A DNA stretch of 64,000 nt, taken from a virus. Under the pieces are notes generated by a model. The model saw only the letters and a list, made by a program, of their open reading frames with translations, did no database searches and was not told the DNA's origin. Below, one piece after another: positions 2,228 to 18,518 of this stretch (positions are counted from its first letter, which is position 1; every line of letters starts with the position of its first letter). Made by a program: the position numbers and the translations under genes. The DNA lies in IMG/VR virus record IMGVR_UViG_3300047476_001831, positions 18,086-82,085 of that record. One strand, written 5' to 3'.

Positions 2228-3625
2228 ATGAACTTCATTGATGCTTTACAATCAGAGGATACTTTAACGGAAAACGGAATGGTAACAAATTCTTCAACTT
2301 TGAACGAATGTGTAAACCTATTCTTCACAATTGGTGCTATGAGAGGACAAGATAAGCAAAGACTTATTTCCACATTCTCAAAAGCATTCAATGAGAATCC
2401 GTTAACTGCATTGAAAATCTTATTTTGGGTTAGAGATGTAAGAGGTGGCGCAGGTGAAAGACAAATCTTCCGTGATATTCTAAAATATCTAGTGGAGAAT
2501 CATCCGAATGTAGTAAAACAAAACATTCAAGCAATACCACATTTTGGTAGATGGGATGACCTTTCAGTTCTTTTTGGTACCGAGTTGGAAGCTGATGCTA
2601 CCAATATGTTTGTAAGTGGTCTAATTGTAGAAAATGGACTATGTGCAAAGTGGATACCAAGAAAGGGTGTTATCTTCAATGCAATTAGAAAGGTATTGAA
2701 AACCACCCCTAAAAACCTTCGTAATCTGTTGGTAGGAATTTCTAATACTGTTGAGCAAAAGATGTGTGCTAACCAATGGAATGAGATTGAGTATGAAAAG
2801 ACTCCATCATTGGCTATGGGTAGATACACAAAGGCTTTTGCAAAACACGACTTAGGTGGTTTTACTGAGTATTTAAATAAGTTAAAAAAAGGAGAAACCA
2901 AAGTCAATGCGGGTGCTGTATATCCTTACAATGTGGTTCAAACAATGAATCAAGGTAGTTGGGAATTAGCAAACGAGCAATGGAAATCTTTACCAAACTT
3001 TATGGAAGGTACAACTGAAAGGATTTTACCTGTGGTTGATGTATCTGGGTCAATGGGTTCAGTAGTTTCTGGTAGTATAACTTGTCTAGATGTAGCAATT
3101 TCTTTGGGATTATATATCTCTGAAAGAAATGAAGGGGTGTTCAAAGATAGTTTCATTACTTTCTCTGAAAAACCTCAACTTCAAGTACTTTCAGGTTCAT
3201 TGAGAGAACGTTACAACCAAATGAGTCAAGCTGATTGGGGTATGAATACAAATCTTGAATTAGTATTTAATGTTGTCCTAAATCAAGCTTTGAAACACAA
3301 AGTTCTGCCTGAAGATATGCCTTCTAAAATATTGATTATGTCTGATATGGAATTTGACCAAGCTACAAGACAATCTGAAAGTGCGATACAGATGATTAGA
3401 AGACAATATGAAGAAAGTGGTTATTCACTACCACAAATCATATTTTGGAACATCCAATCTAGGGGAGGAAACTTCCCAGTAAGACATAATGAATCGGGGA
3501 CTGCATTAATCTCAGGACTTTCACCAAGTATTGTAAAGTCAGTATTGGGTGGAAAAGAGATGACACCAATATCTATTATGAATGAGACAATCAATTCAGA
3601 AAGATATTCAATCATCGAGATGTAA
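2228..3625 (+). CDS. DUF2828-family protein (TROVE/Ro60-like helical domain plus vWA domain)
   Basis: TENG, RDVRGGAGER, GRWDDL, AKWIPR, MIDAS-like DVSGSM, SDMEFD and IIFWN motifs. Confidence 0.85.
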   Translation: MNFIDALQSEDTLTENGMVTNSSTLNECVNLFFTIGAMRGQDKQRLISTFSKAFNENPLTALKILFWVRDVRGGAGERQIFRDILKYLVENHPNVVKQNIQAIPHFGRWDDLSVLFGTELEADATNMFVSGLIVENGLCAKWIPRKGVIFNAIRKVLKTTPKNLRNLLVGISNTVEQKMCANQWNEIEYEKTPSLAMGRYTKAFAKHDLGGFTEYLNKLKKGETKVNAGAVYPYNVVQTMNQGSWELANEQWKSLPNFMEGTTERILPVVDVSGSMGSVVSGSITCLDVAISLGLYISERNEGVFKDSFITFSEKPQLQVLSGSLRERYNQMSQADWGMNTNLELVFNVVLNQALKHKVLPEDMPSKILIMSDMEFDQATRQSESAIQMIRRQYEESGYSLPQIIFWNIQSRGGNFPVRHNESGTALISGLSPSIVKSVLGGKEMTPISIMNETINSERYSIIEM

Positions 3626-3633
3626 AAGAAAAA

Positions 3634-3778
3634 GGAAAAATTGGTTCATAAAGAATGATTCCTGCAAACTAACAAACATTGAATCATTTATATAAGAACC
3701 GAGTTGGTTTACTCATTTTCCCAATCGCAAGGGAATAAATAAAAAAATCAAAAAACTCATTCTGAGACCAATTTTTCC
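3634..3778 (+). ncRNA. Structured RNA repeat unit 1 downstream of DUF2828 gene
   Basis: 12-bp outer stem GGAAAAATTGGT/ACCAATTTTTCC; inner GAATGA/TCATTC; TTCCTGCAAAC motif. Confidence 0.6.
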
Positions 3779-3829
3779 ATTTTTCTTTACTTAATGAAAC
3801 TTTTTAATTAATTTAGCGTTATATAGAAC

Positions 3830-3889
3830 AAAGGATAGATTCAGCAAACTATAAATCAAAACTTGTAAATTTGAAAAAAACTATCCTGA
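3830..3889 (+). ncRNA. Structured RNA repeat unit 2
   Basis: GGATAG/CTATCC stem, TTCAGCAAAC motif, internal hairpin with CTTGTAA loop. Confidence 0.6.
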
Positions 3890-3902
3890 CAATTTAGGTA
3901 AT

Positions 3903-3956
3903 AACGAATGGGTTCAGCAATTGACTTTTGAATGCAAACCAAAAAAACCATTCCGA
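3903..3956 (+). ncRNA. Structured RNA repeat unit 3
   Basis: GAATGG/CCATTC stem, TTCAGCAA motif, A-run before 3' strand. Confidence 0.55.
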
Positions 3957-4002
3957 ACCAAACTTTTTAATAATTTAGTAATACTTATATACAAATAAAA
4001 CA

Positions 4003-4098
4003 ATGAGAAACTCAATCAATCATATTAGTAAGTCAGTACAGCCGCAATTTAGCAATTGTTGGTCGACTAATCCGTATGGTTCAGATAGAGTGTCGTAA
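4003..4098 (+). CDS. Putative attenuator leader peptide (31 aa, MRNSINHISKSVQPQFSNCWSTNPYGSDRVS)
   Basis: Short ORF ending TAA TAG about 30 nt before a terminator whose 5' arm is complementary to the ORF 3' end. Confidence 0.6.
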   Translation: MRNSINHISKSVQPQFSNCWSTNPYGSDRVS

Positions 4099-4127
4099 TA
4101 GGTATAAAGTAATAATTTTTATATGAG

Positions 4128-4158
4128 ACCCTGAACCAAAAAAGTTTAGGGTTTTTTT
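4128..4158 (+). terminator. Intrinsic terminator/attenuator upstream of the first tRNA cluster
   Basis: ACCCTGAAC/GTTTAGGGT stem followed by T-tract. Confidence 0.75.
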
Positions 4159-4159
4159 G

Positions 4160-4172
4160 TGTTCTTTGACAT
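4160..4172 (+). promoter_or_regulatory. boxA-like antitermination/processing element
   Basis: TGTTCTTTGACAT resembles rrn boxA (TGCTCTTTAACA) just before tRNA-Gln. Confidence 0.5.
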
Positions 4173-4188
4173 CGTGGGTAAAATATAC

Positions 4189-4261
4189 TCCCCCTTGGTA
4201 TAATGGTTGATTACATCAGATTTTGATTCTGAGGATGGTGGTTCGATTCCATCAGGGGGAA
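4189..4261 (+). tRNA. trnQ: tRNA-Gln(UUG)
   Basis: Cloverleaf, anticodon loop TT-TTG-AT. Confidence 0.93.
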
Positions 4262-4281
4262 CTTAAAAAAATTACAAAACA

Positions 4282-4313
4282 TTTGGAAATATCAAAAATT
4301 GATTGTAGTTTTG
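4282..4313 (+). promoter_or_regulatory. Bacteroidota-type housekeeping promoter
   Basis: TTTG...TAGTTTTG; similar TTTGGAAAT-led copies at 4831, 7569 and 12433. Confidence 0.65.
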
Positions 4314-4390
4314 TGGAAGAGTAAGGAAAGGTCGTAGGTAGCACTGTCCACAACCAGCCTTAAACGTGGTGGATACTTACTCTAATTTAT

Positions 4391-4466
4391 GGTGGGATTG
4401 CCAAGTTGGTCAAGGCGAATGGCTGAAGATCATTTAATGTAGGTTCGATTCCTACTCCCACCACCA
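4391..4466 (+). tRNA. trnF: tRNA-Phe(GAA)
   Basis: Cloverleaf, CT-GAA-GA, encoded CCA. Confidence 0.93.
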
Positions 4467-4473
4467 AACAAAT

Positions 4474-4548
4474 GTGGTATGTACCCCAACTGGTAGAGGG
4501 GCATCATTGTGGATGATGTATGTGTGGGTTCAAATCCCATCATACCAC
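4474..4548 (+). tRNA. trnH: tRNA-His(GUG)
   Basis: Cloverleaf, TT-GTG-GA, G-1:C73 pair. Confidence 0.93.
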
Positions 4549-4558
4549 CAAACAAATT

Positions 4559-4641
4559 GGAAGAGGTCCGAATGGACGAGGACACTGTCTTGAAAACAGC
4601 TGGGCGTAATTGCTTTGGGGGTTCGATTCCCTTCTCTTCCG
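4559..4641 (+). tRNA. trnS: tRNA-Ser(UGA)
   Basis: CT-TGA-AA, long variable arm, G73. Confidence 0.92.
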
Positions 4642-4654
4642 CAACTTATAAAAT

Positions 4655-4726
4655 GTCTCTATGGTGAAAAGGCAATCACACTTGACTGTTAATCAAGTAT
4701 TCCTGGTTCGAGTCCAGGTGGGGACG
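4655..4726 (+). tRNA. trnN: tRNA-Asn(GUU)
   Basis: Cloverleaf, CT-GTT-AA. Confidence 0.93.
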
Positions 4727-4735
4727 CAACTTTTT

Positions 4736-4808
4736 AGTCCCATAGTTCAACGGATTAGAACCTATCACTACGGATGATAAGATACCTGTTCGAATCGGGT
4801 TGGGACTA
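4736..4808 (+). tRNA. trnR: tRNA-Arg(ACG)
   Basis: Cloverleaf, CT-ACG-GA. Confidence 0.92.
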
Positions 4809-4887
4809 CAAAAAAAAACTTTACTTATTATTTGGAAATAAGAAAAACAAATTGTAGTTTTACATAACAATAAAAAATAATAAAAAA

Positions 4888-5040
4888 ATGAGAAATTTAA
4901 TGTTCATCTTGGTTTTCGGTTTTGTACTTAGTATTCTATTACCTCTTCCAAAATTAATAGGCACACCTATGACACTTGTTGTTTTAGGTTTGATTTTGGG
5001 AGTAGTGTCAATTTTAGAAAACACAAGAAAAAAAGTTTAA
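4888..5040 (+). CDS. Small two-helix membrane protein (50 aa)
   Basis: MRNLMFILVFGFVLSILLPLPKLIG...; promoter at 4831. Confidence 0.6.
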   Translation: MRNLMFILVFGFVLSILLPLPKLIGTPMTLVVLGLILGVVSILENTRKKV

Positions 5041-5046
5041 TCAATT

Positions 5047-5131
5047 GGAGGGTAAAGTAATCAGGGTCATTACCACCGCCTGCTAAGCGAGTGATACCAA
5101 TAGGTATGTGTTTCGAGTACACTGTCCTCCA
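5047..5131 (+). tRNA. trnS: tRNA-Ser(GCU), atypical D/T arms
   Basis: CT-GCT-AA, long variable arm, TTCGAGT. Confidence 0.8.
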
Positions 5132-5145
5132 CAAAAAATTAAAAA

Positions 5146-5295
5146 ATGTTATTAATTATTGGTCTTTTATTTTTGATAATTGGAGTAATCTTATTAGTTT
5201 TGTCTTTCATCAAAAGAAACTCGGATTTGTTTGTAATAGGATTTATATTTCTAATCGTTCTTTTGTTGGGAATTATTTATGGTTTAATAATATAG
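5146..5295 (+). CDS. Small two-helix membrane protein (49 aa)
   Basis: MLLIIGLLFLIIGVILLVLSFIKRNSDLFVIG... Confidence 0.55.
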   Translation: MLLIIGLLFLIIGVILLVLSFIKRNSDLFVIGFIFLIVLLLGIIYGLII

Positions 5296-5368
5296 GGGTG
5301 TAGCTCAGTTGGTTAAGAGTACTAGTTTTGGGAACTAGTGGTCGCAGGTTCGAGCCCTGTCACCCCTA
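5294..5368 (+). tRNA. trnP: tRNA-Pro(UGG)
   Basis: Cloverleaf, TT-TGG-GA. Confidence 0.94.
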
Positions 5369-5378
5369 CAATACATTT

Positions 5379-5453
5379 TGTCCTGTAACTCAGTTGGTTT
5401 AGAGTACTACGCTGATACCGTAGGTGCCGTGGGTTCAAGTCCCACCAGGACAA
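5379..5453 (+). tRNA. trnI: tRNA-Ile(GAU)
   Basis: Cloverleaf, CT-GAT-AC. Confidence 0.93.
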
Positions 5454-5477
5454 CTATTTTTTTAATACTTAAAAATT

Positions 5478-5882
5478 ATGAATCAAGAATTTGTACCCTT
5501 TGAAGAATCCTTGGAATTAAAAGAAATGGGATTTGATGAATTATGTTTTGGATATTACTCGAATGGTCAAATAACGAATGTTGACTTGAATTGGGTAAGT
5601 ACTTCAATCAATCCCCCCACTTTAATTGATGGTGGATTCTATAGTATGAAAAATAGTGACACCACTAATGAACTTAATTGCACTGCACCAATCTATTCAC
5701 AAGTATTCCATTGGTTTATGGAAACCCATAAAATAGATTCCAGTGTGATGGAAATGAAGTTTGTGATTGAGTCTGATGAAGATTTACCGAAATGGTTTTA
5801 TGGGTTCAATAATTATGACGAAACAAAATTAGGATGTTTAAGACAATTAATTAGAAAGGTTAAAAAAAATGGAAAGGGTTAA
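5478..5882 (+). CDS. Phage hypothetical protein
   Basis: ORF; LELKEMGFDE..APIYSQVFHWF. Confidence 0.7.
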   Translation: MNQEFVPFEESLELKEMGFDELCFGYYSNGQITNVDLNWVSTSINPPTLIDGGFYSMKNSDTTNELNCTAPIYSQVFHWFMETHKIDSSVMEMKFVIESDEDLPKWFYGFNNYDETKLGCLRQLIRKVKKNGKG

Positions 5883-6126
5883 AATTGGTGAATACAAAAT
5901 TGGGGATAATTTGATTATCGAATTTGGTGAAAACAATCCCAACAATAAGGAAGTTCAGGTTAGAGCGATAGTTGATATGGAGGTTGTAATTTTATTGGAT
6001 AAGAATCAAAATTATTTAATGGAAACAGTAAAATATATGAATCTTTTATGTAGATTTGGGAACGTTATTCGTGAAAAGAATGATGTGAGATTTCAAACCG
6101 AATTAATTCACGACCCAAGAATCTAA
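5869..6126 (+). CDS. Hypothetical protein
   Basis: ORF overlapping upstream stop. Confidence 0.65.
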   Translation: MERVKIGEYKIGDNLIIEFGENNPNNKEVQVRAIVDMEVVILLDKNQNYLMETVKYMNLLCRFGNVIREKNDVRFQTELIHDPRI

Positions 6127-6129
6127 ATT

Positions 6130-6426
6130 ATGCTAAAAAGAATTATCAAAAGGAGTACTTGTAAGTTTTACGAATCAATTAGAAACCGATTTAATATGGA
6201 GTGTGTGTTGAGAGAAGGTGATTATGTTTATGATATTGAGGATGGGAGTGAATGGTTGTTATTGGAAAATCCCAATAAAGGTGGTTCGGCAAAAAGTATT
6301 TGTACATTTGCGCCTGAAGGTTGTGTGTATAAAATAGGAACACCATTCAAAAGATGTTATTTTGATGAGTTTGGTAAATTGAGAAAATACCTCAAAAGAG
6401 GTATGAACCCAGAAAGAAATTTTTAA
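6130..6426 (+). CDS. Hypothetical protein
   Basis: ORF. Confidence 0.6.
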   Translation: MLKRIIKRSTCKFYESIRNRFNMECVLREGDYVYDIEDGSEWLLLENPNKGGSAKSICTFAPEGCVYKIGTPFKRCYFDEFGKLRKYLKRGMNPERNF

Positions 6427-6431
6427 TTAAT

Positions 6432-6506
6432 GACCCTGTGGCTTAGCTGGTTTAAAGCACAATACTTTTAATATTGGGATCGGGAGTTCGAATCTCCCCA
6501 GGGTCA
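6432..6506 (+). tRNA. trnK: tRNA-Lys(UUU)
   Basis: Cloverleaf, CT-TTT-AA. Confidence 0.94.
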
Positions 6507-6731
6507 CTTAGGTATAGTTTGGATTATTAATCCCATTGAACTTGCGGTTACTTTATATGTGAATAATGAAGGGGTAAAATTAATACCCATTTGTTTGAAA
6601 TCGAAAACTTCGAATTCTTGTTCCTCATAAACTCCAACAATCGAACTTGTTTCGTTATTGATGTATAAGGAATCAAAGGTTTTTAAGTTTATTACTAAAC
6701 CTATTTCAACTGGGGGGATAAGTATTGTCAT
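6504..6731 (-). CDS. Hypothetical protein, antisense within tRNA region
   Basis: ORF preceded by ATATTTAT motif on minus strand. Confidence 0.55.
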   Translation of the reverse strand: MTILIPPVEIGLVINLKTFDSLYINNETSSIVGVYEEQEFEVFDFKQMGINFTPSLFTYKVTASSMGLIIQTIPK

Positions 6732-6775
6732 TTAATGGTTTTGTTAAATAAATATTGAATTTAAATTAAATTTTT

Positions 6776-7459
6776 ATGTCAACAACTTGGAATGAAATTT
6801 GGAAAAATAGGAAGGTAGAATTTGATTCGTTGGATTATTCTAATTTATTGAAACTGAATGGTTATGATGGTCCTCAAAGTAATCTAACTCCACAAAATTT
6901 AAATCTAGCTCATAAGATTTATGCGGAAAAAATGAATTTAAAACCTAATCAGAGTATTTTTGAGGTTGGTTGTGGGGCAGGTTCTTTCCTGTACAATTGG
7001 TATAATAGTGGACATAAAGTTGGTGGATGTGACATATCTAAAAACTTATTGGAATGTACAAAAAAAATCTTACCAAGAGGTGAATGGTATTTAGCTTCAG
7101 ATAGTGAATTTGAAAAAGAGCCTAAATGGGATCACTTGGTATCTTTTGGTGTGTGTATGTATTTAACACCAAGAGAGGTTTTGAATTTAATCGATAGAAT
7201 GATAAATAAAGCGAATTTTAGTGTATCATTATTCGAAATCTCTGATTTAGACAAGATGATAGATTGTGAAAAAGAAAGAAGAAGAATGATTCCTAATTAT
7301 GAGGTTAAATACAAAGACTTAAACCATTTTTATCATAGTAAAAATGATATTTCTGAACATTTAAATAAGTTAGGTTTAAATTATACCATTTATGATCAAT
7401 ACATACCTGGTTATGAAAATTCTAAATGGAGATTTAATGTAACTATTAATTTGGTTTGA
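6776..7459 (+). CDS. Class I SAM-dependent methyltransferase
   Basis: IFEVGCGAG motif I, GCDIS motif. Confidence 0.85.
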   Translation: MSTTWNEIWKNRKVEFDSLDYSNLLKLNGYDGPQSNLTPQNLNLAHKIYAEKMNLKPNQSIFEVGCGAGSFLYNWYNSGHKVGGCDISKNLLECTKKILPRGEWYLASDSEFEKEPKWDHLVSFGVCMYLTPREVLNLIDRMINKANFSVSLFEISDLDKMIDCEKERRRMIPNYEVKYKDLNHFYHSKNDISEHLNKLGLNYTIYDQYIPGYENSKWRFNVTINLV

Positions 7460-7473
7460 TTAATATAAATTCT

Positions 7474-7548
7474 ACTTCCTTAGCTCAGTTGGTTTAGAGT
7501 AACATCCTTACAAGGTGAAGGTCATTGGTTCGAATCCAATAGGAAGTA
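7474..7548 (+). tRNA. trnV: tRNA-Val(UAC)
   Basis: Cloverleaf, CT-TAC-AA. Confidence 0.92.
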
Positions 7549-7609
7549 CAAAAAAACTTTACAAAGTGTTTGGAAATATGAAAAACAAGTTGTAAGTTTG
7601 TAAGACACT

Positions 7610-7685
7610 AGTTTTGTAGCTTAATGTGTGAAAGCGTTCAATGGGTAACTGTTGAAAGATTTAGGTTAGAATCCTGTCAGGACTA
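7610..7685 (+). ncRNA. tRNA-like RNA with anticodon loop replaced by GTAA tetraloop
   Basis: Acceptor AGTTTTG/CAGGACT, D-arm GCTT/AAGC, 8-bp arm TTCAATGG-GTAA-CTGTTGAA, T-loop TTAGAAT; promoter 7569-7600. Confidence 0.65.
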
Positions 7686-7887
7686 CAAAAAAAATGTACC
7701 TCGATGCCTCTCATAAGAACGGCACACTAGCAGAGGTCTTGTTGCTTGTAAACGAATAGCCCAAGGTATAAGTTAGGAAGCTTAACTCAACCTATCCCCC
7801 ACTGACGAGTGGGGTGAAGTTGGGGGATTAAAAAGAAATATTATATATCTGCAATATATAAAATTCATTAACTTAAAAACAATCAAT

Positions 7888-8853
7888 ATGAAAAAATTAA
7901 CTTTATTTATTTTAATCAATTTTTTTTTAAACAATTTTAATTGTTACTCTCAAATAAAAACTTTAGAAGTCAGTAAACAAAAAGAAATTTTAGATACAAT
8001 AACATATGACAGCTCAAAAAATTTTTTAGGCGAGAATGTTTATATGTATAAAAATCAAGAATTATATGTAATGCCACAACACCCTAGTTTAAGGAAATAT
8101 GGGTATAGTTATTTTTACACTGACTATAAAAAGGAGGTAAAATACAAGTGTTGTGATGGTATTGGTTCAAAATATAGTGATTTAGTTGGTCAATATTTTC
8201 TTGTCGTAGATATAATAAAAATAGAAAAATCTGTTGATGATATTGTAGATACCGATAAGTTTTACCTCAAATTAAGGAATAAAAAAACATCTGAAATACT
8301 ATACTTCAAATATAACACCAAATATGAATCTGATTTTCCTTTTTTAGTTGTTGGATATTATGAAAAACAAAATGAAATTAATGTTGGTAAAGAAATTATT
8401 CTAAAAAATGGAAAATGGTTAGAAATATGGTATGGTAAAGGAGAACCAATAATAGATTTAAAGACCGGTAGTATTTTGAATATTCAACAAGGTAGTAAAT
8501 GGAAATGTGTAAATGTTATGGTTGAGGAGAAATGTTTTACTTTTGCTATGATTTTAGAAAATAATTTAGGACACACAATATTTTTACCATTATCATCATA
8601 TAATAAACCAAGTTTCAAGATACAATGGGGAATATATAATCCGATAGAGGTAAAAAATTATATTGAAAGATTTGGTGTTGAGAATTGGGAAATAATTTTG
8701 AATAGTGAAATAAAAATTGGATTTACTGAAGAAATGGTTAAACTTGCTTGGGGGTTACCTAAAAAAATAAACAGAACGTCTGGTTTGGATCAATGGGTTT
8801 ATGAAAATCAATATCTTTACTTTAACAATGGTAAATTAGAAGCGTATAATTAA
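7888..8853 (+). CDS. Secreted hypothetical protein (signal peptide)
   Basis: Signal peptide ending YSQ; C-terminal IGFTEEMVKLAWGLP..QWVY. Confidence 0.7.
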   Translation: MKKLTLFILINFFLNNFNCYSQIKTLEVSKQKEILDTITYDSSKNFLGENVYMYKNQELYVMPQHPSLRKYGYSYFYTDYKKEVKYKCCDGIGSKYSDLVGQYFLVVDIIKIEKSVDDIVDTDKFYLKLRNKKTSEILYFKYNTKYESDFPFLVVGYYEKQNEINVGKEIILKNGKWLEIWYGKGEPIIDLKTGSILNIQQGSKWKCVNVMVEEKCFTFAMILENNLGHTIFLPLSSYNKPSFKIQWGIYNPIEVKNYIERFGVENWEIILNSEIKIGFTEEMVKLAWGLPKKINRTSGLDQWVYENQYLYFNNGKLEAYN

Positions 8854-8863
8854 TTATAAAATT

Positions 8864-8948
8864 GGTCGGGTGGCCGAGTTGGTTAAGGCAATAGTCTGCA
8901 AAACTATCGAAAAACATTTCATCGTGGGTTCAAGTCCCACCCCGACCT
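8864..8948 (+). tRNA. trnC: tRNA-Cys(GCA) with long variable arm
   Basis: CT-GCA-AA, U73; 16-nt variable region with GAAA/TTTC stem. Confidence 0.88.
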
Positions 8949-9000
8949 CAAAAAATAGTTCAGTTAGTTATTTTTACTCATTTTGTTGATATTTATATAT

Positions 9001-9732
9001 ATGAAATGGAATGATAACGATATTGAAAAATTGATTGATTTAGTTAATCAAGGATTAAAACCGAATAGGATTGCTGAGATTTTTGGGGTTTCGTATAAAA
9101 CGATAACTAACAAAATGTTTAGGATGGGTTTACAAGTAATTTATACGACAAATAAAACTTGTAAAAATTGTGGTAATAGTTTTGAATCTTATTTGAGTAA
9201 AAACAAATTGTTTTGTAATTCATCTTGTTCAACGACATTCAATAATAAAAATCGTAAACATACTGAAGAAACTAAAAATAAAATTGCAAAAACCCTAAAG
9301 AATAAGCCAACTAAACCTAAAGTTAAAAAAATCAAAACTTGTAGGATTTGTAATAACGAGGTTGTTGAAAAATATAAGATTGTTTGTGAAGATTGTAGAT
9401 TGGAGTATTATCAATATTATAGACCTTCTTGTACTTTTCAGTTTGATGTAAAAGATTATCCACAAGAATTTGATTTGAGTTTAATTGAACAACATGGATG
9501 GTATTCTCCAACAAATAAAAAAAATAATTTAGGGGGTGTCACAAAAGACCATAAATATTCAGTGATGGAGGGTTTTAGAAATAAGATAGACCCAAGTATT
9601 TTATCACATCCTGTAAATTGTAAATTACTTTTATTTTCAGAGAATTCATCCAAAAATGATAAATCATCATTAACCTTAAATGAACTACTTGAAAATATTG
9701 AAATTTGGAATAAAAAATACGGAAATAGTTAA
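9001..9732 (+). CDS. Free-standing homing endonuclease-like protein (Zn finger, NUMOD3-like, HNH-like)
   Basis: CxxC pairs, KHTEETKNKIA, DHKYS...HPVNC...ENSSKN; likely start 9001. Confidence 0.7.
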   Translation: MKWNDNDIEKLIDLVNQGLKPNRIAEIFGVSYKTITNKMFRMGLQVIYTTNKTCKNCGNSFESYLSKNKLFCNSSCSTTFNNKNRKHTEETKNKIAKTLKNKPTKPKVKKIKTCRICNNEVVEKYKIVCEDCRLEYYQYYRPSCTFQFDVKDYPQEFDLSLIEQHGWYSPTNKKNNLGGVTKDHKYSVMEGFRNKIDPSILSHPVNCKLLLFSENSSKNDKSSLTLNELLENIEIWNKKYGNS

Positions 9733-9760
9733 AAGTTATTATTATCTTTACATAACATAT

Positions 9761-9835
9761 GGGGATGTAGCTCAATTGGTTTAGAGTGGTGGTCTCCAAA
9801 ACCACAGGTTATAGGTTCGAGTCCTATCGTCCTCG
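9761..9835 (+). tRNA. trnW: tRNA-Trp(CCA)
   Basis: Cloverleaf, CT-CCA-AA. Confidence 0.94.
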
Positions 9836-9849
9836 CAAAACTTAAAAAA

Positions 9850-10050
9850 ATGAAAGAAATTAAATACAGATTTTTGTTAACTTTTTATTCGGCTTTTATT
9901 TTTTTTCTAATTATGATTCCACAGATTCTAATTAGTAAACACATTTTTAATTTGAAATTTAATGAATATCTAATGTGGGGTGTTTTATATATCTCATATG
10001 ATTTCACAACAAAATTTATTTTACCCAAGAAAAAGAAAAAAGATATTTAA
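9850..10050 (+). CDS. Small membrane protein
   Basis: Two hydrophobic helices. Confidence 0.6.
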   Translation: MKEIKYRFLLTFYSAFIFFLIMIPQILISKHIFNLKFNEYLMWGVLYISYDFTTKFILPKKKKKDI

Positions 10051-10051
10051 T

Positions 10052-10372
10052 ATGGTAAGGGATTACATAATCGAGACATTATTGAAAATAAAAGAACACG
10101 ATGAAAAGGTACATAAACTCTATACTCTCGGAGTTGATATTATTGACTTTGACAACTCCTTTTCGCAACTTGAAAAAAGTATTCCGACCTTACTCCGAAA
10201 AGAAAAAGACAAACAATTCGGATACATTCAGGACTTAGTTGGTTGGTGGTTATACGAAGATGTTGATAAAATAATTTATGTTGATGATATAGAGATTAAT
10301 GTTGACAAAGTCGTGGAATTTGTTGACTATTTATTAAGAGAGTATGGAACAAATGACATACCCACAAATTAG
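10052..10372 (+). CDS. Hypothetical protein (likely start MVRDY)
   Basis: ORF 9980..10372; ATG directly after upstream stop. Confidence 0.65.
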   Translation: MVRDYIIETLLKIKEHDEKVHKLYTLGVDIIDFDNSFSQLEKSIPTLLRKEKDKQFGYIQDLVGWWLYEDVDKIIYVDDIEINVDKVVEFVDYLLREYGTNDIPTN

Positions 10373-10374
10373 AT

Positions 10375-11016
10375 ATGGCTTATATTGAAAGTAATTTTTT
10401 CCCACTTAAAGTTTATGTTCGTAATGAATATATGTATCAGAACCAAAAAGGTTTTGGGGAGTTTACTGAGGCTGTAATCACATCAATTAGATGTTTACCT
10501 GGACAAGCAACATTATTTCAAGTATTGTTAAATAATGGTGTTATGAGAGATAAATTACCCTCTCATGCCTTGTTAACAAAACCTGAATTACCAAATCCTG
10601 ATTTTCCATTTCATTACCTACAAATATGGAACTCTTTTTCTTACAATTTCTCACTTATACAATTGAATTATTTACCTAATGCACCAGTCAGTGTTTTTAT
10701 GAAAAACAAAAAATGGATGGATGGTAATTATTTTGCAACAATAAATTGGGGATCAAGTGATATGAACACCAATCTAAGTTTAGCTGAGGATGGTATGGAA
10801 CACAAGTGTCACCATATTATATTACTAAAAAATGGACAAATTGCATTACAACCGAATAATAGAATTAAATGGTTTGAAGCAAGTTTTGTAACCAAAGATT
10901 TTCCTAAAAAACCTGATTATTTGGTTAATGACCAAATATGGAATTGTGAAACAACAGAAAAGTGGGCAACTGAAGATTCGGATTATATGTTCTACGATAA
11001 CGATTTAAAAAATTAA
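10375..11016 (+). CDS. Phage hypothetical protein
   Basis: 213-aa ORF with EHKCHH and QPNNRI motifs. Confidence 0.7.
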   Translation: MAYIESNFFPLKVYVRNEYMYQNQKGFGEFTEAVITSIRCLPGQATLFQVLLNNGVMRDKLPSHALLTKPELPNPDFPFHYLQIWNSFSYNFSLIQLNYLPNAPVSVFMKNKKWMDGNYFATINWGSSDMNTNLSLAEDGMEHKCHHIILLKNGQIALQPNNRIKWFEASFVTKDFPKKPDYLVNDQIWNCETTEKWATEDSDYMFYDNDLKN

Positions 11017-11018
11017 TT

Positions 11019-11402
11019 ATGTTCAAATATAAAGTAGAAGTAAAAAATTCAAAGAATCCTAAAATGGGATTAGGTTTGTTTGCAAATGAAATTATAAAAA
11101 GTGACACAATTGTTTGGGAGTTTATTGAGGGTTTGGATATAAGAATAGACCAAGATACCTTAAACAAATTAAATGATACTCAAAGGGAGTTTTTCAAGAA
11201 ATATGGGTGGAAGGAAGATGATGGAAATTATTATTCCTCTTGTGATTTAACGAATTTTATAAATCATAGTTTTACCCCCAATCTGATTTGTGTTGGAGAG
11301 ATAATAAAAACAAATAAAGATATTGAAATTGGTGAAGAATTATTTATCAATTATGAAGAATTCGATGTTGAGTTCGACACTTACAAAAATGAACTTATTT
11401 AA
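11019..11402 (+). CDS. SET-domain protein (lysine methyltransferase family)
   Basis: GLGLFA, FINHSFTPN, GEELFINY signature motifs. Confidence 0.88.
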   Translation: MFKYKVEVKNSKNPKMGLGLFANEIIKSDTIVWEFIEGLDIRIDQDTLNKLNDTQREFFKKYGWKEDDGNYYSSCDLTNFINHSFTPNLICVGEIIKTNKDIEIGEELFINYEEFDVEFDTYKNELI

Positions 11403-11411
11403 TTTTTAAAG

Positions 11412-11912
11412 ATGAAAGAAATGGTAATTGTAAACTTCTACAAAAAATATGAAGCAAATTGGGATGAACTCCAAATGATAGCCTTGGACACAATTGCCAA
11501 AATGGAAGAAAGTTTGGAAGATGTTGAAATTGGTGAACTTTCAGTTTATCAACAATATGAAGATTATAGGACAGCTTGTATGCAAGGATTAAAAACATTT
11601 ATCCTTCAAGTATTAAATGATTGGGAGAATATGAACATTTTAGTGTTGAATGGGGAGTTTTATAAGAAATTCGAGTTCTTAGAAATGGAAGGGATTCTAA
11701 ACGATTGGGAATACTCAAGTTTATATAGAAATTCAAAAGAACTATTCACCTTCTTTAATAAAGAAAAGTTTCAACTAACACCAGAACAATTTGATTTTAT
11801 TCATGCTCTTTATTCAAAAAATGATGATGTAATTTGTAACTTATTGTCATTTGAATATGAGGTAAGGGAAATAAGTGAAGAAGATGACAATACTGACGAT
11901 TTAATTGATTAA
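11412..11912 (+). CDS. Hypothetical protein
   Basis: ORF. Confidence 0.7.
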   Translation: MKEMVIVNFYKKYEANWDELQMIALDTIAKMEESLEDVEIGELSVYQQYEDYRTACMQGLKTFILQVLNDWENMNILVLNGEFYKKFEFLEMEGILNDWEYSSLYRNSKELFTFFNKEKFQLTPEQFDFIHALYSKNDDVICNLLSFEYEVREISEEDDNTDDLID

Positions 11913-11914
11913 TT

Positions 11915-12226
11915 ATGAAAAACAATATTTTTACAAAAGAAATAAAAGTCGCTGATGCTAATACATCAGTTAGTGAATTACTAAGAGAAACACTAATTAA
12001 TTTCAGTTGGGGTTTCTTTGGTAACTCAATTGTTGTGTTTATGGCCAAAGAAATTGATATCGCAGTATTGGTTAATTTCTTCTTATATTATATCCTAATT
12101 TCAATGATTGTTAATCGTGCTAAATATGAAACTAACTTGGGGAAATTCTTTGTTTTACCCGGTTCAGCAGCTCTTGGAGCATTCACAGGATATAAAGTAG
12201 CACAAATTATTTCAACTTTTTTGTAA
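11915..12226 (+). CDS. Membrane protein
   Basis: Three hydrophobic segments. Confidence 0.7.
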   Translation: MKNNIFTKEIKVADANTSVSELLRETLINFSWGFFGNSIVVFMAKEIDIAVLVNFFLYYILISMIVNRAKYETNLGKFFVLPGSAALGAFTGYKVAQIISTFL

Positions 12227-12288
12227 CATACTTGACACTTTTTCGTTTTATCATTATATTTAATAAAAAAATAGTAAAAACTTCACAA

Positions 12289-12360
12289 ATGAAATACAAT
12301 CTCTATATGGACTTAACGATAGCAACTGAGGGTAGAAACCCTCGGATGGAGATGATATGA
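12289..12360 (+). CDS. Putative attenuator leader peptide (23 aa, MKYNLYMDLTIATEGRNPRMEMI)
   Basis: Ends TGA TAA TAG; GGATGGA complementary to downstream terminator arm. Confidence 0.55.
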   Translation: MKYNLYMDLTIATEGRNPRMEMI

Positions 12361-12387
12361 TAATAGGTTTTAATTGTTAATAATGTC

Positions 12388-12423
12388 AATCCATCTTCCT
12401 AAAAAAAAGATGGATTTTTTTTT
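12388..12423 (+). terminator. Intrinsic terminator/attenuator
   Basis: AATCCATCTT/AAGATGGATT stem plus T-tract. Confidence 0.75.
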
Positions 12424-12467
12424 GTCACAAAGTTTGGAAATTAGAAATGGTTTTGTAACTTTGTAGT

Positions 12468-12947
12468 ATGAGAAAACAAACACCATACATATCATCTTCA
12501 GTCGCCATAAAAGGGATTAATGATTCAGTACTTGCGAAGTCAGAGAACAACGATTGTGTAGTAAGAGCTTTTGCTTCAGCATACAATGTATCTTATGATT
12601 TTGCACACAAAAAAGTCGCTGAATTATTTGGAAGAAAAAATAGACAAGGGACATTTTGTTTCAGTATTGTAATGAGACAAATGGAACTTCAAGATGTAAG
12701 GATAAATAAGAAAAAAGTTCAAACAATAAGAAAAGATGTGAATCTATCTTATTGGGTAAAAGTAAAAGGTGTGAACAAATTAAGAAATATGACAACTGCA
12801 AAGTTTTTAGAGGATTTTCCCACTGGAACTTACATTGTCACAGTCAAAGGACATGCTTTTACAATAAAGGATGGAGTGGTAATTGGAAATCCAGAAGATG
12901 CAACTCAAAGAAAAAAAAATATCTTTGGTGCTTGGAAAATAGGATAA
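12468..12947 (+). CDS. Phage hypothetical protein (possible C39/papain-like Cys-His fold)
   Basis: NDCVVRA...YIVTVKGHAFTIKDG. Confidence 0.6.
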   Translation: MRKQTPYISSSVAIKGINDSVLAKSENNDCVVRAFASAYNVSYDFAHKKVAELFGRKNRQGTFCFSIVMRQMELQDVRINKKKVQTIRKDVNLSYWVKVKGVNKLRNMTTAKFLEDFPTGTYIVTVKGHAFTIKDGVVIGNPEDATQRKKNIFGAWKIG

Positions 12948-12989
12948 GATTACTTAACTTTGTAAAGTTAATTGAAATTGAGGAATAAA

Positions 12990-13063
12990 GGGCTATTGGT
13001 GTAGAGGTCGAACATGCCACCCTGTCACGGTGGAGATCAGGGGTTCAAATCCCCTATAGCTCG
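12990..13063 (+). tRNA. trnD: tRNA-Asp(GUC)
   Basis: Cloverleaf, CT-GTC-AC. Confidence 0.93.
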
Positions 13064-13080
13064 CAAAAAAAATTAATATT

Positions 13081-13215
13081 ATGACAAAGTTTATTATTGC
13101 TTGTATTGGTATAATTATTTTGGGTTTTATTGGGAACTACATCATTAAAAAATATCCAAATTCTTGGGTTGCAAAATGGTGGGATGATATGACTGATAAT
13201 GCCCATTGGTGGTAA
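13081..13215 (+). CDS. Small membrane protein (44 aa)
   Basis: MTKFIIACIGIIILGFIGNY...WW. Confidence 0.55.
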   Translation: MTKFIIACIGIIILGFIGNYIIKKYPNSWVAKWWDDMTDNAHWW

Positions 13216-13222
13216 AATATAT

Positions 13223-13295
13223 GTTCCATTCGACAAGGGGTCTAAGTCACCTCCCTTTCACGGAGGAGTCATGGGTTCGAATCCCATATGGAATA
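13223..13295 (+). tRNA. trnE: tRNA-Glu(UUC)
   Basis: Cloverleaf, CT-TTC-AC. Confidence 0.93.
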
Positions 13296-13345
13296 CAAAT
13301 CTCAGAAGTAATTAATCTGGGGCTGAGAGGTTCGAAACTCTCGAA

Positions 13346-13474
13346 TGGCTATGGTGTAAGGGCACACGGTCCCCCTGGGCGACAATATTGCGAAAGGGTA
13401 TCCTTAATAGGAGAGAGTATTGTGAAACGATAGAAGTAAGGGACTGGGGAAGGGTTCGAATCCTTTTTAGTCAA
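13346..13474 (+). ncRNA. tRNA-like RNA with ~66-nt structured insertion in anticodon loop
   Basis: TGGCTA/TAGTCA acceptor, GTGT/ACAC D stem, GGTCCC/GGGACT stem, TTCGAAT T-loop. Confidence 0.6.
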
Positions 13475-13483
13475 CAAACATAA

Positions 13484-13555
13484 TGCAAGGAAGTGTAGAG
13501 GTTGCACATTGGGCTCATAACCCAAAGGTAGTGGGTTCGATTCCCACCCTTGCGT
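13484..13555 (+). tRNA. tRNA-Met(CAU), initiator-like
   Basis: CT-CAT-AA with GGG/CCC anticodon-stem pairs; weak 1:72 pair. Confidence 0.88.
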
Positions 13556-13564
13556 CAAACACAA

Positions 13565-13639
13565 TGCAAGATGGACTGGAAGTGGTTCCAGCTCGGTCTC
13601 ATAAGCCGTACCATGTGGGTTCGACTCCCACTCTTGCAT
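13565..13639 (+). tRNA. tRNA(CAU), probably elongator Met, atypical D arm
   Basis: CT-CAT-AA, acceptor TGCAAGA/TCTTGCA. Confidence 0.8.
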
Positions 13640-13652
13640 CTAAATTATTAAT

Positions 13653-13737
13653 GGGAAAGCGCCGAAGTAGGAGAGTCGGGGATGACTGTAAATCATTTGC
13701 TTTAGCTGAGGGGGTTCGAATCCCTCTTTTCCCACCA
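13653..13737 (+). tRNA. trnY: tRNA-Tyr(GUA)
   Basis: CT-GTA-AA, long variable arm, CCA. Confidence 0.92.
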
Positions 13738-13783
13738 CAATGCAGTAACAGCTCAATGAAGTTTGAAACATAAACAATAAAAA

Positions 13784-13856
13784 GCATCAATAGCTCAATT
13801 GGTAGAGTCCTTGTCTTCCAAACAAGATGTTACGAGTTCGAATCTCGTTTGATGCT
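13784..13856 (+). tRNA. trnG: tRNA-Gly(UCC)
   Basis: Cloverleaf, CT-TCC-AA, U73. Confidence 0.94.
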
Positions 13857-13876
13857 CAAAATATAAATAAACCGCT

Positions 13877-14086
13877 ATGAATCAGTTACAATTTAATAAT
13901 CTTAAAGTGGGTGATAAAATACATATAAAATCTCGTGATGGTTTATACACCTTCTTGAAAAAAGATTTTAGATATGGAGAAATACACATTACTTGTAACA
14001 GATGGCAATATGAAGAAAATCCAATAAGGATAACAACTTTTGATGACTTCAAATGTTTAGCTGGTGGTTTATGGAGGATAAGATAA
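13877..14086 (+). CDS. Hypothetical protein
   Basis: ORF between tRNAs. Confidence 0.6.
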   Translation: MNQLQFNNLKVGDKIHIKSRDGLYTFLKKDFRYGEIHITCNRWQYEENPIRITTFDDFKCLAGGLWRIR

Positions 14087-14093
14087 ATTAAAT

Positions 14094-14171
14094 GGGGACG
14101 CATGTACCAAGGCAGGGCGACAGACATTTGCAATGTCCGTGAGGTGAGTTCGATTCTCACCGTTTCCACCA
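14094..14171 (+). tRNA. trnA: tRNA-Ala(UGC), atypical D arm
   Basis: TT-TGC-AA, G3:U70, encoded CCA. Confidence 0.87.
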
Positions 14172-14183
14172 AAAAAAAGTTAT

Positions 14184-14786
14184 ATGAAAAAAGTATTTTT
14201 ATTTTTGATGTGTTTTGTATTACTCACATCGTTTTCAACCCCACCTTTGAGGGTTTTATTCATTGGAGATAGTTTAACTTGTTATACTGGTGGTTGGCAA
14301 GACCAAGTGTGTAGATATTTTGGATATCAAAGTGTCAATAGGTCAGTTGGTGGTAAAAGAACTGAATGGATGAGGTTGACATTAAATGAACATTTGAAGA
14401 GGGATTCATCTTTCACTTATTGTTTTATCTATGGGGGTTGTAATGATGCTTATTCTTATGTGAATCTTCAAGGCGCTGTAAACAATATACAGATGATGGT
14501 GGATAGTTGTAATAGGAGGGGAATTAAGCCTATTGTAATCGTTGGTTATGACCCAGCTAAAGTATCAATCAAAACTGTTTATGATGCTGCAACCACAAAG
14601 AGATGTAGAGAAAGATATGTGGAGTTTCAAAAGTTAATGGTTCATCCTGAAACTGGACTTAAAAATTGTAAAATCATTCCAAAGGATACAACAGTAACAT
14701 TTCAGGATGCCGGTGATGGAATCCATCTTGGTGGAAATGGACAAAGGAAATTTGCTAATTGGGTAATAAATCACTTAAATCAATAA
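14184..14786 (+). CDS. Secreted SGNH/GDSL hydrolase
   Basis: FIGDSLT, GGCND, DGIHL blocks; signal peptide. Confidence 0.88.
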   Translation: MKKVFLFLMCFVLLTSFSTPPLRVLFIGDSLTCYTGGWQDQVCRYFGYQSVNRSVGGKRTEWMRLTLNEHLKRDSSFTYCFIYGGCNDAYSYVNLQGAVNNIQMMVDSCNRRGIKPIVIVGYDPAKVSIKTVYDAATTKRCRERYVEFQKLMVHPETGLKNCKIIPKDTTVTFQDAGDGIHLGGNGQRKFANWVINHLNQ

Positions 14787-14788
14787 TA

Positions 14789-15061
14789 ATGAAATATATA
14801 ATTCCAACAGTTTTTATTACAATTATGTGGATTTTTTTAATTACTGGAATCCTTAATACTATCCCAACACCTAAAATAGAAAATGGGGATATTCTTAAAA
14901 ATTGTGTAATTGATACGATGTATGTTACAGAATCCCCATCTACAATTGAATATGGAAAACGATATAATTACAAGACAAGTTGTGATGAAGTTATTTTAAC
15001 CAAGAGAAAGGATGTATATTCAATTGGTGATACAATAACTTATGTATATAAAAAAAGATAA
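14789..15061 (+). CDS. Membrane-anchored hypothetical protein
   Basis: ORF 14759..15061, likely start MKYII. Confidence 0.6.
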   Translation: MKYIIPTVFITIMWIFLITGILNTIPTPKIENGDILKNCVIDTMYVTESPSTIEYGKRYNYKTSCDEVILTKRKDVYSIGDTITYVYKKR

Positions 15062-15069
15062 TACACTTT

Positions 15070-15143
15070 GCCGACATAGCTCAGCTGGCCAGAGCACGTG
15101 ATTTGTAATCTCGGGGTCGTGGGTTCAAATCCCTCTGTCGGCT
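15070..15143 (+). tRNA. trnT: tRNA-Thr(UGU)
   Basis: Cloverleaf, TT-TGT-AA. Confidence 0.93.
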
Positions 15144-15226
15144 CAAATATTTTTCAAAATTATTCCACTATTGTTGTGTGAATTAAAAACTCTTCTTATA
15201 TTTGTGAACACTAAAACGGAAACACA

Positions 15227-15457
15227 ATGGCAAAAGAGAAAAAAACAATTCAAGTTGAGTTTATTAAAAACTTTGCAAATCTACAATTAGCAAATCCAAA
15301 TAACTCAATTCAAGCGAAACTTGGAGTAATTGCGATGTTAGAAAAGGTTTTAAGTGAAGCAAATGCTTACAAAGGTTATATGTATTTGTCTTTAGGTCCT
15401 AACAATACACCACCTGAATTTGGTAGTGAGGGATGGGCATCAAGAAAGTATTTCTAA
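15227..15457 (+). CDS. Hypothetical protein
   Basis: ORF after TATATTTG promoter element. Confidence 0.7.
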   Translation: MAKEKKTIQVEFIKNFANLQLANPNNSIQAKLGVIAMLEKVLSEANAYKGYMYLSLGPNNTPPEFGSEGWASRKYF

Positions 15458-15575
15458 TGGTTGTGACACCTAGTAATTCACAAGTAGTGGTTGACACTTT
15501 GAATGTTACCTGACTTTAAGGTTTTGAAGAGTAAAACCAGAAATCTTCTAAAAAACTTCTAAAAAATTTACAACT

Positions 15576-15836
15576 ATGGCACTGATTTATTTAGTTATTG
15601 ATAGACTTGATAAGATTCCAATTTTAACAGCATCCACGCGTGAAAAGGCGAAAGAACTCTTGGATGAGTTTATGGGATTACCTCCATACTTTGAAGATAA
15701 GGATGTGGAATATTTGGGTTATTTTCCTTACAATTGTAAATGGCCTGACATATATGAGGGTGACTTTAAGTATAGAGATGGGGAAGATATACAAGTGTTC
15801 AGTTTGTATTGTATGACATTAGATGAATTGAATTGA
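15576..15836 (+). CDS. Hypothetical protein
   Basis: ORF. Confidence 0.65.
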   Translation: MALIYLVIDRLDKIPILTASTREKAKELLDEFMGLPPYFEDKDVEYLGYFPYNCKWPDIYEGDFKYRDGEDIQVFSLYCMTLDELN

Positions 15837-15842
15837 TAATAT

Positions 15843-15957
15843 AGTCCTGTGGCGGAATTGGTAGACGCTAAGTAAGATGGTGTACATTTGTCCCATAAGA
15901 AAGACCGATGCAACAGAAATGTGAAGGGTCGTATAGGTTCAAATCCTATCTTGACTA
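15843..15957 (+). ncRNA. tRNA-Leu-like RNA without a recognisable anticodon arm
   Basis: Leu-type D arm GCGGAATTGGTAGACGC, T arm ATAGG-TTCAAAT-CCTAT, expanded middle. Confidence 0.6.
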
Positions 15958-15960
15958 CAA

Positions 15961-16167
15961 TGAGTAAGAGATACTCAGTGGTCTTTTATCCAAGACCCAT
16001 TTAACAATGGATAGGTTCAATTTGGACAACCTCAATGCCAAATCGTGGGAATAAAGGCAGGTAGCAGAGCCTCCCAGTAGCTTGACTAATTTTAAGAGGG
16101 ATGACCCACAGGTTTATTGAAAGCAAGAAAACCGATATATCTACTCACTTGGAATCTCAGAGTGGGG
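15961..16167 (+). ncRNA. Candidate multi-hairpin structured RNA
   Basis: ORF-free, at least six hairpins, terminal TGAGTA/TACTCA complementarity. Confidence 0.5.
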
Positions 16168-16173
16168 AAATTT

Positions 16174-16245
16174 GCACCCATAGTTAAAAGGATATAACCT
16201 ATCTCTTCTAAAGATATATTCCTAGTTCGAGTCTAGGTGGGTGTA
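16174..16245 (+). tRNA. trnR: tRNA-Arg(UCU)
   Basis: Cloverleaf, CT-TCT-AA. Confidence 0.93.
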
Positions 16246-16269
16246 CTAACTATAAAAAAAACATAAACA

Positions 16270-16689: not shown

Positions 16690-16698
16690 ATTAAAATT

Positions 16699-16872: not shown

Positions 16873-16891
16873 ATTAAAAACTAATATTGAG

Positions 16892-17259: not shown

Positions 17260-17298
17260 ATGAAGGTTGGGTGGTGTAATGGTAGCCACGCAAGACTT

Positions 17299-18265: not shown

Positions 18266-18320
18266 AAAATCTTGTGGTCAGTAAGACCGTGCGGGTTCGA
18301 GTCCCGCCCCGACTACTAAA

Positions 18321-18394: not shown

Positions 18395-18399
18395 CAATT

Positions 18400-18485: not shown

Positions 18486-18518
18486 CAATATTTTTTCACG
18501 TCTAATTCAATTAATTAA

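Follow-up and report, generated by a model that had tools for sequence, protein, structure and literature searches.

The DNA analyzed here, referred to as the window, is a 64,000-nt stretch of an 82-kb fragment from an uncultured freshwater (lake) phage (IMG/VR record IMGVR_UViG_3300047476_001831), and all coordinates are positions in this window. ARAGORN identified 22 tRNA genes in the window, all on the + strand and arranged in two blocks (4189-9836 and 12990-18486). Rfam and folding added tRNA-Ser(UGA) at 4559-4640, tRNA-Ser(GCU) at ~5046-5131 and a tRNA-like RNA at 7610-7685, and a scan of the rest of the record found no further tRNA. Both of the added tRNA-Ser genes were missed by ARAGORN; they are visible through a weak tRNA-Sec-like match in Rfam and through folding. 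The first block, cluster 1, has tRNAs for 12 amino acids (Q, F, H, S, N, R, P, I, K, V, C and W). Immediately before its first gene, tRNA-Gln, lies the unit that is the subject of this report, which is composed of a small open reading frame (ORF), an intrinsic terminator and a conserved block (Table 1). An earlier note, made from the sequence of the window alone, had proposed that this unit is a leader-peptide attenuator that responds to translation stress and gates the first tRNA cluster. As described below, the balance of the evidence, all of it from sequence and computation, leans toward a working ribosome-dependent (leader-peptide) transcription attenuator before phage tRNA genes.

Table 1. 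Positions of the elements of the leader unit and of the features that follow it
Feature	Position	Strand	Description
Leader ORF	4003-4098	+	31 codons plus TAA (4096-4098); a second stop, TAG (4099-4101), adjoins
Head of the leader, codons 2-21	4006-4065	+	Conserved part of the peptide; proposed sensing window
Region 1, CAATCATATT (codons 5-8)	4017-4026	+	Pairs with region 2 in the predicted ribosome-free fold
Apical hairpin inside the ORF, CCGCAATT / AATTGTTGG	4042-4062	+	Pairing plus two compensatory pairs
Region 2, putative antiterminator 5' strand; core TGGTTCAG at 4077-4084	4074-4085	+	Best duplex partner of the terminator 5' arm
Intrinsic terminator	4125-4158	+	5' arm 4125-4136, loop 4137-4143, 3' arm 4144-4155, T-run 4152-4158
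Region 3, putative antiterminator partner, CTGAACCA	4131-4138	+	Perfect complement of TGGTTCAG
Conserved block between terminator and tRNA, including boxA-like TGTTCTTTGACAT (4160-4172)	4160-4186	+	
tRNA-Gln(UUG)	4189-4262	+	First gene, and the sole one unambiguously behind the terminator
Bacteroidota-type promoter-like motif, TTTG-N20-TAGTTTTG	4282-4313	+	Heads the next tRNA unit

A conserved leader unit before tRNA-Gln

The anatomy set out in the earlier note was recovered in full, including the 31-codon ORF that ends in TAA TAG, the perfect 8-bp complementarity of TGGTTCAG near its end to CTGAACCA, which overlaps the terminator 5' arm, and the succession of TGTTCTTTGACAT and tRNA-Gln further downstream. 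To place this unit among its relatives, a protein-guided scan of viral contigs provided seven syntenic loci and a peptide-guided scan of metagenome contigs provided 19 more; a tight DNA pattern drawn from the block that precedes the tRNA matched, in the viral scan, only the seven loci already found. Sixteen of these loci, representing ~10 distinct variants, were analyzed, with alignment statistics calculated on 12 sequences and folds with an occluded head on 11 variants. Two RNA-labeled sequencing runs that cover the region contributed diverged contigs only, and one of the two is probably DNA.

All 16 loci share the unit of small ORF, terminator, conserved block and tRNA-Gln. What lies upstream of the unit differs among them: some loci have RNA repeats there, and the others carry any of four unrelated ORFs. 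The linkage of leader, terminator and tRNA-Gln is constant while its upstream side is variable, which assigns the unit to tRNA-Gln rather than to the 3' end of the genes before it.

A leader ORF of 28-35 codons is present in each of the 16 loci, and two parts of it can be distinguished. The head, comprising the first 21 codons, aligns without gaps, and close variants differ there mainly at synonymous third positions (AAT/AAC, CAG/CAA, ATC/ATT, TGT/TGC, TCA/TCG and AGC/AGT), a pattern that supports, in silico, translation of the leader ORF. The tail past codon 21 adds 7-14 further residues and is variable in both length and sequence. Nevertheless, the tails of all variants retain the pentanucleotide TGGTT, and they do so in three reading frames (xxT GGT Txx, TGG TTT and ATG GTT), with its end 0-16 nt from the stop across variants and 11 nt from it in the window. 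The combination of a coding-like head with a frame-independent TGGTT in a variable tail is as expected if the head were selected as a string of codons and the tail as RNA.

The earlier note had also remarked that several leader codons look rare for this genome, and the codon counts agree with that impression. In the long ORFs of the window (14,740 codons), CCG accounts for 4% of Pro, TCG for 3% of Ser, CAG for 8% of Gln, AGC for 1% of Ser and GTG for 7% of Val codons; these rare codons make up 7 of the 31 leader codons as compared to a 5.1% share genome-wide (P = 8e-4).

Alternative pairings of the leader RNA

The terminator is a stem of 12 pairs (4125-4155) with a T7 run; it is the sole terminator-like site in 3900-4330 and the best one in the interval of 2-20 kb. 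Relatives have 12 pairs and T7-T10, and in the 12-sequence alignment the stem is 100% paired, with one compensatory pair (GC to AU). Region 3 covers six bases of its 5' arm and two bases of the loop. Pairing of the 5' arm with the TGGTT site has a predicted energy of -12.8 kcal/mol versus -7.0 +/- 1.8 in 300 dinucleotide shuffles (RNAduplex), only 0.7% of which were as good. When the entire leader was searched for partners of the 5' arm, the best one was the homologous region-2 site in 16/16 loci (-11 to -14 kcal/mol; per-sequence shuffle P of 0.003-0.05). Thus, the complementarity in related phages, on which the earlier note had staked its proposal, is conserved at every locus analyzed.

The aligned sequences point in the same direction. 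The antiterminator helix is 88.8% paired, as compared to at most 56% after one strand is shifted by one to three columns. Three-way covariation is seen at one position, in L159 and L160, where G is replaced by A in the 5' arm (CTGAAC to CTAAAC), C by T in the 3' arm (GTTCAG to GTTTAG) and C by T in region 2, which there reads TGGTTTAG. Other lineages have C-G or U-G at this position; an unpaired base is found only in the variant represented by L001 and L157, the other unpaired count being that of L005, which MAFFT misaligned there. The apical hairpin inside the ORF is 99% paired, and a swap of its arms from CAATT/AATTG to CAAA/TTTG goes along with a change of the encoded peptide from QFSNC to QSNFC.

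Both conformations envisaged in the earlier note were predicted by folding. In the ribosome-free leader of the window, which is more structured than expected (z = -4.05), codons 5-8 are predicted to pair with the TGGTT region in a long hairpin, alongside the terminator. With the head occluded and the RNA folded up to the terminator loop, the pairing of region 2 with region 3 is the lowest-energy fold in all 11 variants (-12.6 to -18.1 kcal/mol; the terminator hairpin by itself, -13.1 to -16.5). Several relatives need no occlusion: as long as the 3' arm is not yet made, their complete ribosome-free leader has the antiterminator as its lowest-energy fold.

The spacing of these elements relative to the stop codon bears on what a terminating ribosome could cover. 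The fitted duplex sites end anywhere from 15 nt before the stop to 7 nt beyond its first base, so in the modeled geometry a ribosome at the stop would always cover at least part of the segment, as the earlier note had supposed in proposing that it masks the antiterminator. The terminator stem begins 26 nt past the stop in the window, and the CCCT of the stem, counted from the first stop-codon base, lies 33 nt away there and 29-46 nt away across relatives. E. coli terminators located very near a stop codon are repressed by the terminating ribosome, with full efficiency regained beyond 30 bp (PMC4824070). Given these E. coli data, the 26-nt spacing implies that a ribosome at the stop should mask region 2 and leave the terminator nearly free. 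A pyrBI-type mechanism, in which the ORF runs into or through the terminator and a nearby ribosome obstructs the hairpin physically, was considered and rejected, since the stop lies 26 nt before the stem.

Taken as a switch, these pairings would operate as follows, provided that translation and transcription are coupled in the host, as we infer. A ribosome that proceeds smoothly to the stop would cover region 2, region 3 would then pair with region 4 (the terminator 3' arm plus the T-run), and transcription would end at ~4158. A ribosome held within approximately the first 15-19 codons would keep region 1 away and leave region 2 free; region 2 would then pair with region 3 ahead of the synthesis of region 4, and RNA polymerase would continue into the boxA-like block and tRNA-Gln, perhaps further. 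The prediction of the earlier note that stalling frees the antiterminator is borne out in these models, because a ribosome placed in the first two thirds of the ORF gives the antiterminator in every variant tested. Its companion claim, that failed translation also switches on the tRNAs, fits only part of the family: it agrees with the folds of several relatives and disagrees with that of the window, where without a ribosome regions 1 and 2 are predicted to pair and the terminator to form.

Leader composition, tRNA clusters and surrounding signals

The signal to which such a switch might respond is indicated by the composition of the head. All 20 of its residues (positions 2-21) belong to the 12 amino acids of cluster 1, and all 12 of these are present. 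With independent draws at the amino acid frequencies of the phage, in which this set sums to 0.549, the probability of 20/20 is 6e-6, and the chance that 20 such residues also cover all 12 amino acids is 0.005. Shuffles that preserve the base composition of the head gave P = 3e-5, and none of the 15,783 real 20-residue windows of phage proteins matches the head in this respect. The property is confined to the head and to its reading frame, as the other frames of the same DNA place 6-15 of 20 residues in the set and the tails are near background (62% vs 55%). Moreover, of the 21 alternative head residues found in relatives, 19 stay within the set (P = 5.5e-4), and many of these replacements are chemically radical (F/S, I/N, N/V/K, I/K/R and S/I).

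Some lineages also track the tRNA content of their own cluster. For example, ATA codons accompany a CAT tRNA in cluster 1, and in L005 Val is missing from the head and tRNA-Val from the cluster. In three lineages, the Arg codons found in the head are CGC or CGT, which make up 0% and 12%, respectively, of Arg codons in phage genes and are decoded by the cluster-1 tRNA-Arg(ACG).

A second leader, unrelated in sequence to the first, precedes the second block of tRNA genes in the same phage. It contains a 23-codon ORF at 12290-12361 (MKYNLYMDLTIATEGRNPRMEMI) with an internal hairpin, a terminator that extends to 12425, and a segment near its stop that is complementary to the terminator 5' arm, so that its fold logic is as in the first leader. 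Its ORF includes all ten cluster-2 amino acids, with 18/22 residues in that set and 4/22 outside it. It also differs from the first leader in having a promoter-like motif and a 159-codon gene before its first tRNA.

Because the first head consists of exactly the 12 cluster-1 amino acids, spelled partly with rare G-ending codons, the signal would most likely be the supply of usable tRNA, host and phage together, and a shortage of any tRNA kind encoded in the head would lead to more read-through. It is possible, at somewhat less than even chances, that the two leaders constitute a homeostatic tRNA inventory check, in which two unrelated sensors are each written in the amino acids of their own cluster. 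Under such an arrangement, host tRNA decay, anticodon nucleases or a mismatch in codon usage would stall the test ribosome and increase transcription of the corresponding cluster; this is how a link to host tRNA damage, as proposed in the earlier note, could come about.

The extent of the gated region depends on the signals that lie downstream of the terminator. The block at 4160-4186 stays beside tRNA-Gln in all variants, even where ~50 nt are inserted after the terminator, and TGTTCTTTGACAT within it, which by eye resembles boxA, occurs once in the window. A literature search for this boxA-like motif returned unrelated primers only. In 13/16 loci, the T-run and the start of tRNA-Gln are separated by 28-31 nt, and scans of this gap with a Bacteroidota-type motif and for sigma-70-type sites detected no promoter-like site; tRNA-Gln appears to depend on read-through in those lineages.

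Promoters of Bacteroidota have the consensus TTTG, 19-21 nt, TAnnTTTG. This motif has 15 matches in the window as compared to 5.4 expected. A recurring form (TTTGGAAAT, ~13 nt, TTGTAnnTTTG) is found after tRNA-Gln (4282-4313), tRNA-Arg (4831-4860), tRNA-Val (7569-7600) and the leader-2 terminator (12433-12463), and the copy after tRNA-Gln is conserved in most relatives. These matches are suggestive of a host among the Bacteroidota and of tRNA clusters that contain promoters of their own. Consequently, the earlier proposal that the first tRNA cluster as a whole is gated can be retained in part: the attenuator would clearly gate tRNA-Gln, and with promoter motifs at 4282, 4831 and 7569 the remainder of the cluster would possibly be gated only as far as read-through transcripts continue.

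Several other RNA features surround the unit. The upstream gene at 2228-3625 encodes a protein with DUF2828 and DUF7788 (Ro-like, vWA), which annotations of other phages describe as RNA-binding or as von Willebrand factor A (vWA)-like. Directly 3' of it, at 3626-3960, are three hairpin units, in each of which stem, RTTCAGCAA, variable insert, A-run, stem' and YGA follow one another; their stems vary among units and relatives while complementarity is kept (GGATAG/CTATCC, GAATGG/CCATTC, GAATGA/TCATTC, GGGTAG/CTACCC and GAGTGA/TCACTC). No Rfam family matched these units; a role as partner RNAs for the Ro-like protein is possible. An inverted repeat of ~19 bp at 3627-3785 (GAAAAAGGAAAAATTGGT / ACCAATTTTTCC-A-TTTTTC) begins right after the stop of the DUF2828 gene and encloses ~120 nt, so that it could provide a long closing stem around the first hairpin unit. 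Within cluster 1, the RNA at 7610-7685 scores 43.5 bits against the tRNA model and folds with a 4-nt loop, and a 69-nt RNA at 4318-4386, closed by AGAGTAAG/CTTACTCT, lies just 3' of a promoter-like motif; neither has a normal 7-nt anticodon loop. The phage also encodes a tmRNA (27228-27608, - strand, 99.8 bits).

Competing explanations, precedents and significance

Several observations weigh against an attenuator or against its reading as an inventory check. Among relatives, the rare-codon enrichment holds in most and not in all, which amends the argument from codon usage, and the order of residues in the head is conserved beyond the needs of a pure inventory, so that the peptide itself may matter. 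The fit between leader codons and tRNA content across lineages is mixed. The sole Arg codon of the window head is AGA, which is decoded by a cluster-2 tRNA, and the relative G001 (L163), which lacks the stretch of cluster 1 that carries the Ser, Asn, Arg(ACG) and Val tRNAs, nonetheless keeps N, S and V codons in its head; the two-cluster split (Gln to Trp, a ~2.8-kb gap, Asp to Leu) is otherwise kept in three relatives. At the level of RNA, the covariation of the antiterminator amounts to a single event, at one position in one lineage, and is modest evidence; complementarity conserved across reading frames is the stronger argument. The helix between regions 1 and 2 is 81% paired in the 12 variants, with no compensatory change, and lies outside the RNAalifold consensus. 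In G005, a more distant phage that shares the upstream gene family, the 19 tRNAs form a single array with neither a terminator nor such an element before it, so the element is lineage-specific.

Promoters raise further points on this side of the argument. The promoter-like motifs inside cluster 1 imply that most of the cluster need not rely on read-through. In addition, L005, L159 and L160 carry the ~50-nt insert, with the sequence AACTTT-N17-TATAAT, between the terminator and the boxA-like block that precedes tRNA-Gln; this is possibly an additional promoter from which transcription would bypass the attenuator. As for the leader, no sigma-70-like promoter was detected in 3900-4330, and such sites showed no overall enrichment. 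Candidates resembling AACTTT / TATAAA upstream of the ATG were noticed by eye; their spacing is inconsistent and they are not claimed.

One alternative is that the locus holds an ordinary small gene with its own terminator, which insulates the upstream unit, that tRNA-Gln is transcribed by constitutive leak-through or from an unrecognized promoter, and that the complementarity does not switch anything. This phage has many small ORFs among its tRNAs (such as 4888-5040 and 5146-5295), the head is conserved as a functional peptide would be, the later tRNAs are served by promoter-like motifs, and three lineages have a promoter-like insert past the terminator. We nevertheless regard this explanation as unlikely, because a simple gene would not account for TGGTT being held in three frames where the tail peptide is unconserved, for its being in every case the best partner of the 5' arm and within reach of a ribosome at the stop, or for a position that covaries three ways. 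Nor would it account for radical head substitutions that remain in a set defined by tRNAs, or for a unit that moves with tRNA-Gln and not with the upstream genes.

The strong conservation of residue order, with H7, P14, Q15, C19 and W20 invariant across relatives, could instead be the mark of a leader that arrests the ribosome through its nascent peptide, as the TnaC, SecM and Erm leaders do. In that event, a head of the form HI..S.QPQFSNCWS would stall the ribosome on a small molecule or a ribosome-targeting agent and thereby open the antiterminator, and codon supply would not be the signal. The RNA switch downstream would be identical in the two cases. What speaks against arrest is that many positions accept radical replacements (F/S, I/N, N/V/K and I/K/R), that F, S and N change places around the Cys-Trp pair, that W20 lies anywhere from 8 to 15 residues before the stop, and that both the match to the 12 cluster-1 amino acids and the complementary composition of leader 2 would be left without explanation; we therefore give it only a small chance. 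A still smaller one attaches to an RNA-only regulator, in which translation of the ORF is incidental and leader hairpins bind a factor, either the neighboring DUF2828 Ro-like protein or, as in a T-box, uncharged tRNA, that selects between terminator and antiterminator. The pronounced structure of the leader, together with a gene for a Ro-like RNA-binding protein and covarying RNA repeats just upstream, would suit such a regulator. The third-position variation of the head reflects selection on a protein reading frame, neither a T-box nor any other Rfam family is found in 3626-4188, and in some relatives other genes lie between the leader and the DUF2828 gene, all of which make this scenario very improbable. 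The coding signal in the head also led us to discard a reading of the leader as a Y RNA.

A leader-peptide attenuator, which we favor over these explanations, would have parallels in known systems. The enterobacterial attenuators (trpL, hisL, leuL, thrL, ilvL/ivbL and pheL, plus pheM for pheST) combine, as is predicted for the phage leader, a short translated leader ORF and an intrinsic terminator with mutually exclusive 1:2, 2:3 and 3:4 pairings, of which the 1:2 helix is the least secure in the phage, and their control codons name the regulated product. Rare codons sharpen the response of the leu leader. However, the enterobacterial elements control biosynthetic enzymes or synthetases and the phage element would control tRNAs; their ORFs stop before region 2 and that of the phage spans it; and they contain tandem runs of one to three kinds of codon, whereas the phage leader lists 12 amino acids with one to three codons each. 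The phage setting is a further difference, and there is no sequence or Rfam similarity. An Rfam scan of 3000-20000 gave nothing in 3626-4188 at E <= 1 (no known leader family, T-box or Y RNA), and leader models including Trp_leader, His_leader, Leu_leader, Thr_leader and Bacteroid-trp were unmatched in 3626-4188.

T-box riboswitches offer a functional likeness, as a shortage of usable tRNA flips a terminator to an antiterminator upstream of genes for translation supply. Unlike the phage leader, whose head is under coding selection, T-boxes bind uncharged tRNA directly, with neither ribosome nor ORF. The boxA of rRNA leaders (rrn-type, bound by NusB/NusE) is found upstream of untranslated stable-RNA genes, after a hairpin. 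The phage 13-mer is similarly placed, a likeness judged by eye only, and the phage hairpin differs in being a full terminator with a T-run and not a boxB.

Genes for tRNAs are frequent in large phages, and the control of their output is largely unknown. Literature searches found no precedent for leader-peptide control of tRNA genes or of phage tRNAs. If the inventory reading is correct, this would be the first leader-peptide attenuator known for tRNA genes; with 12 amino acids per sensor, it would also be more multivalent than any other known one, and it would extend classical attenuation from amino acid supply to tRNA supply. The complementary composition of the second leader provides a built-in reciprocal control for this idea. 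Such an element would offer a compact and portable means of sensing how well chosen codons can be decoded, and in the phage it would form a simple feedback loop that ties the supply of tRNAs to the demand for them during infection.

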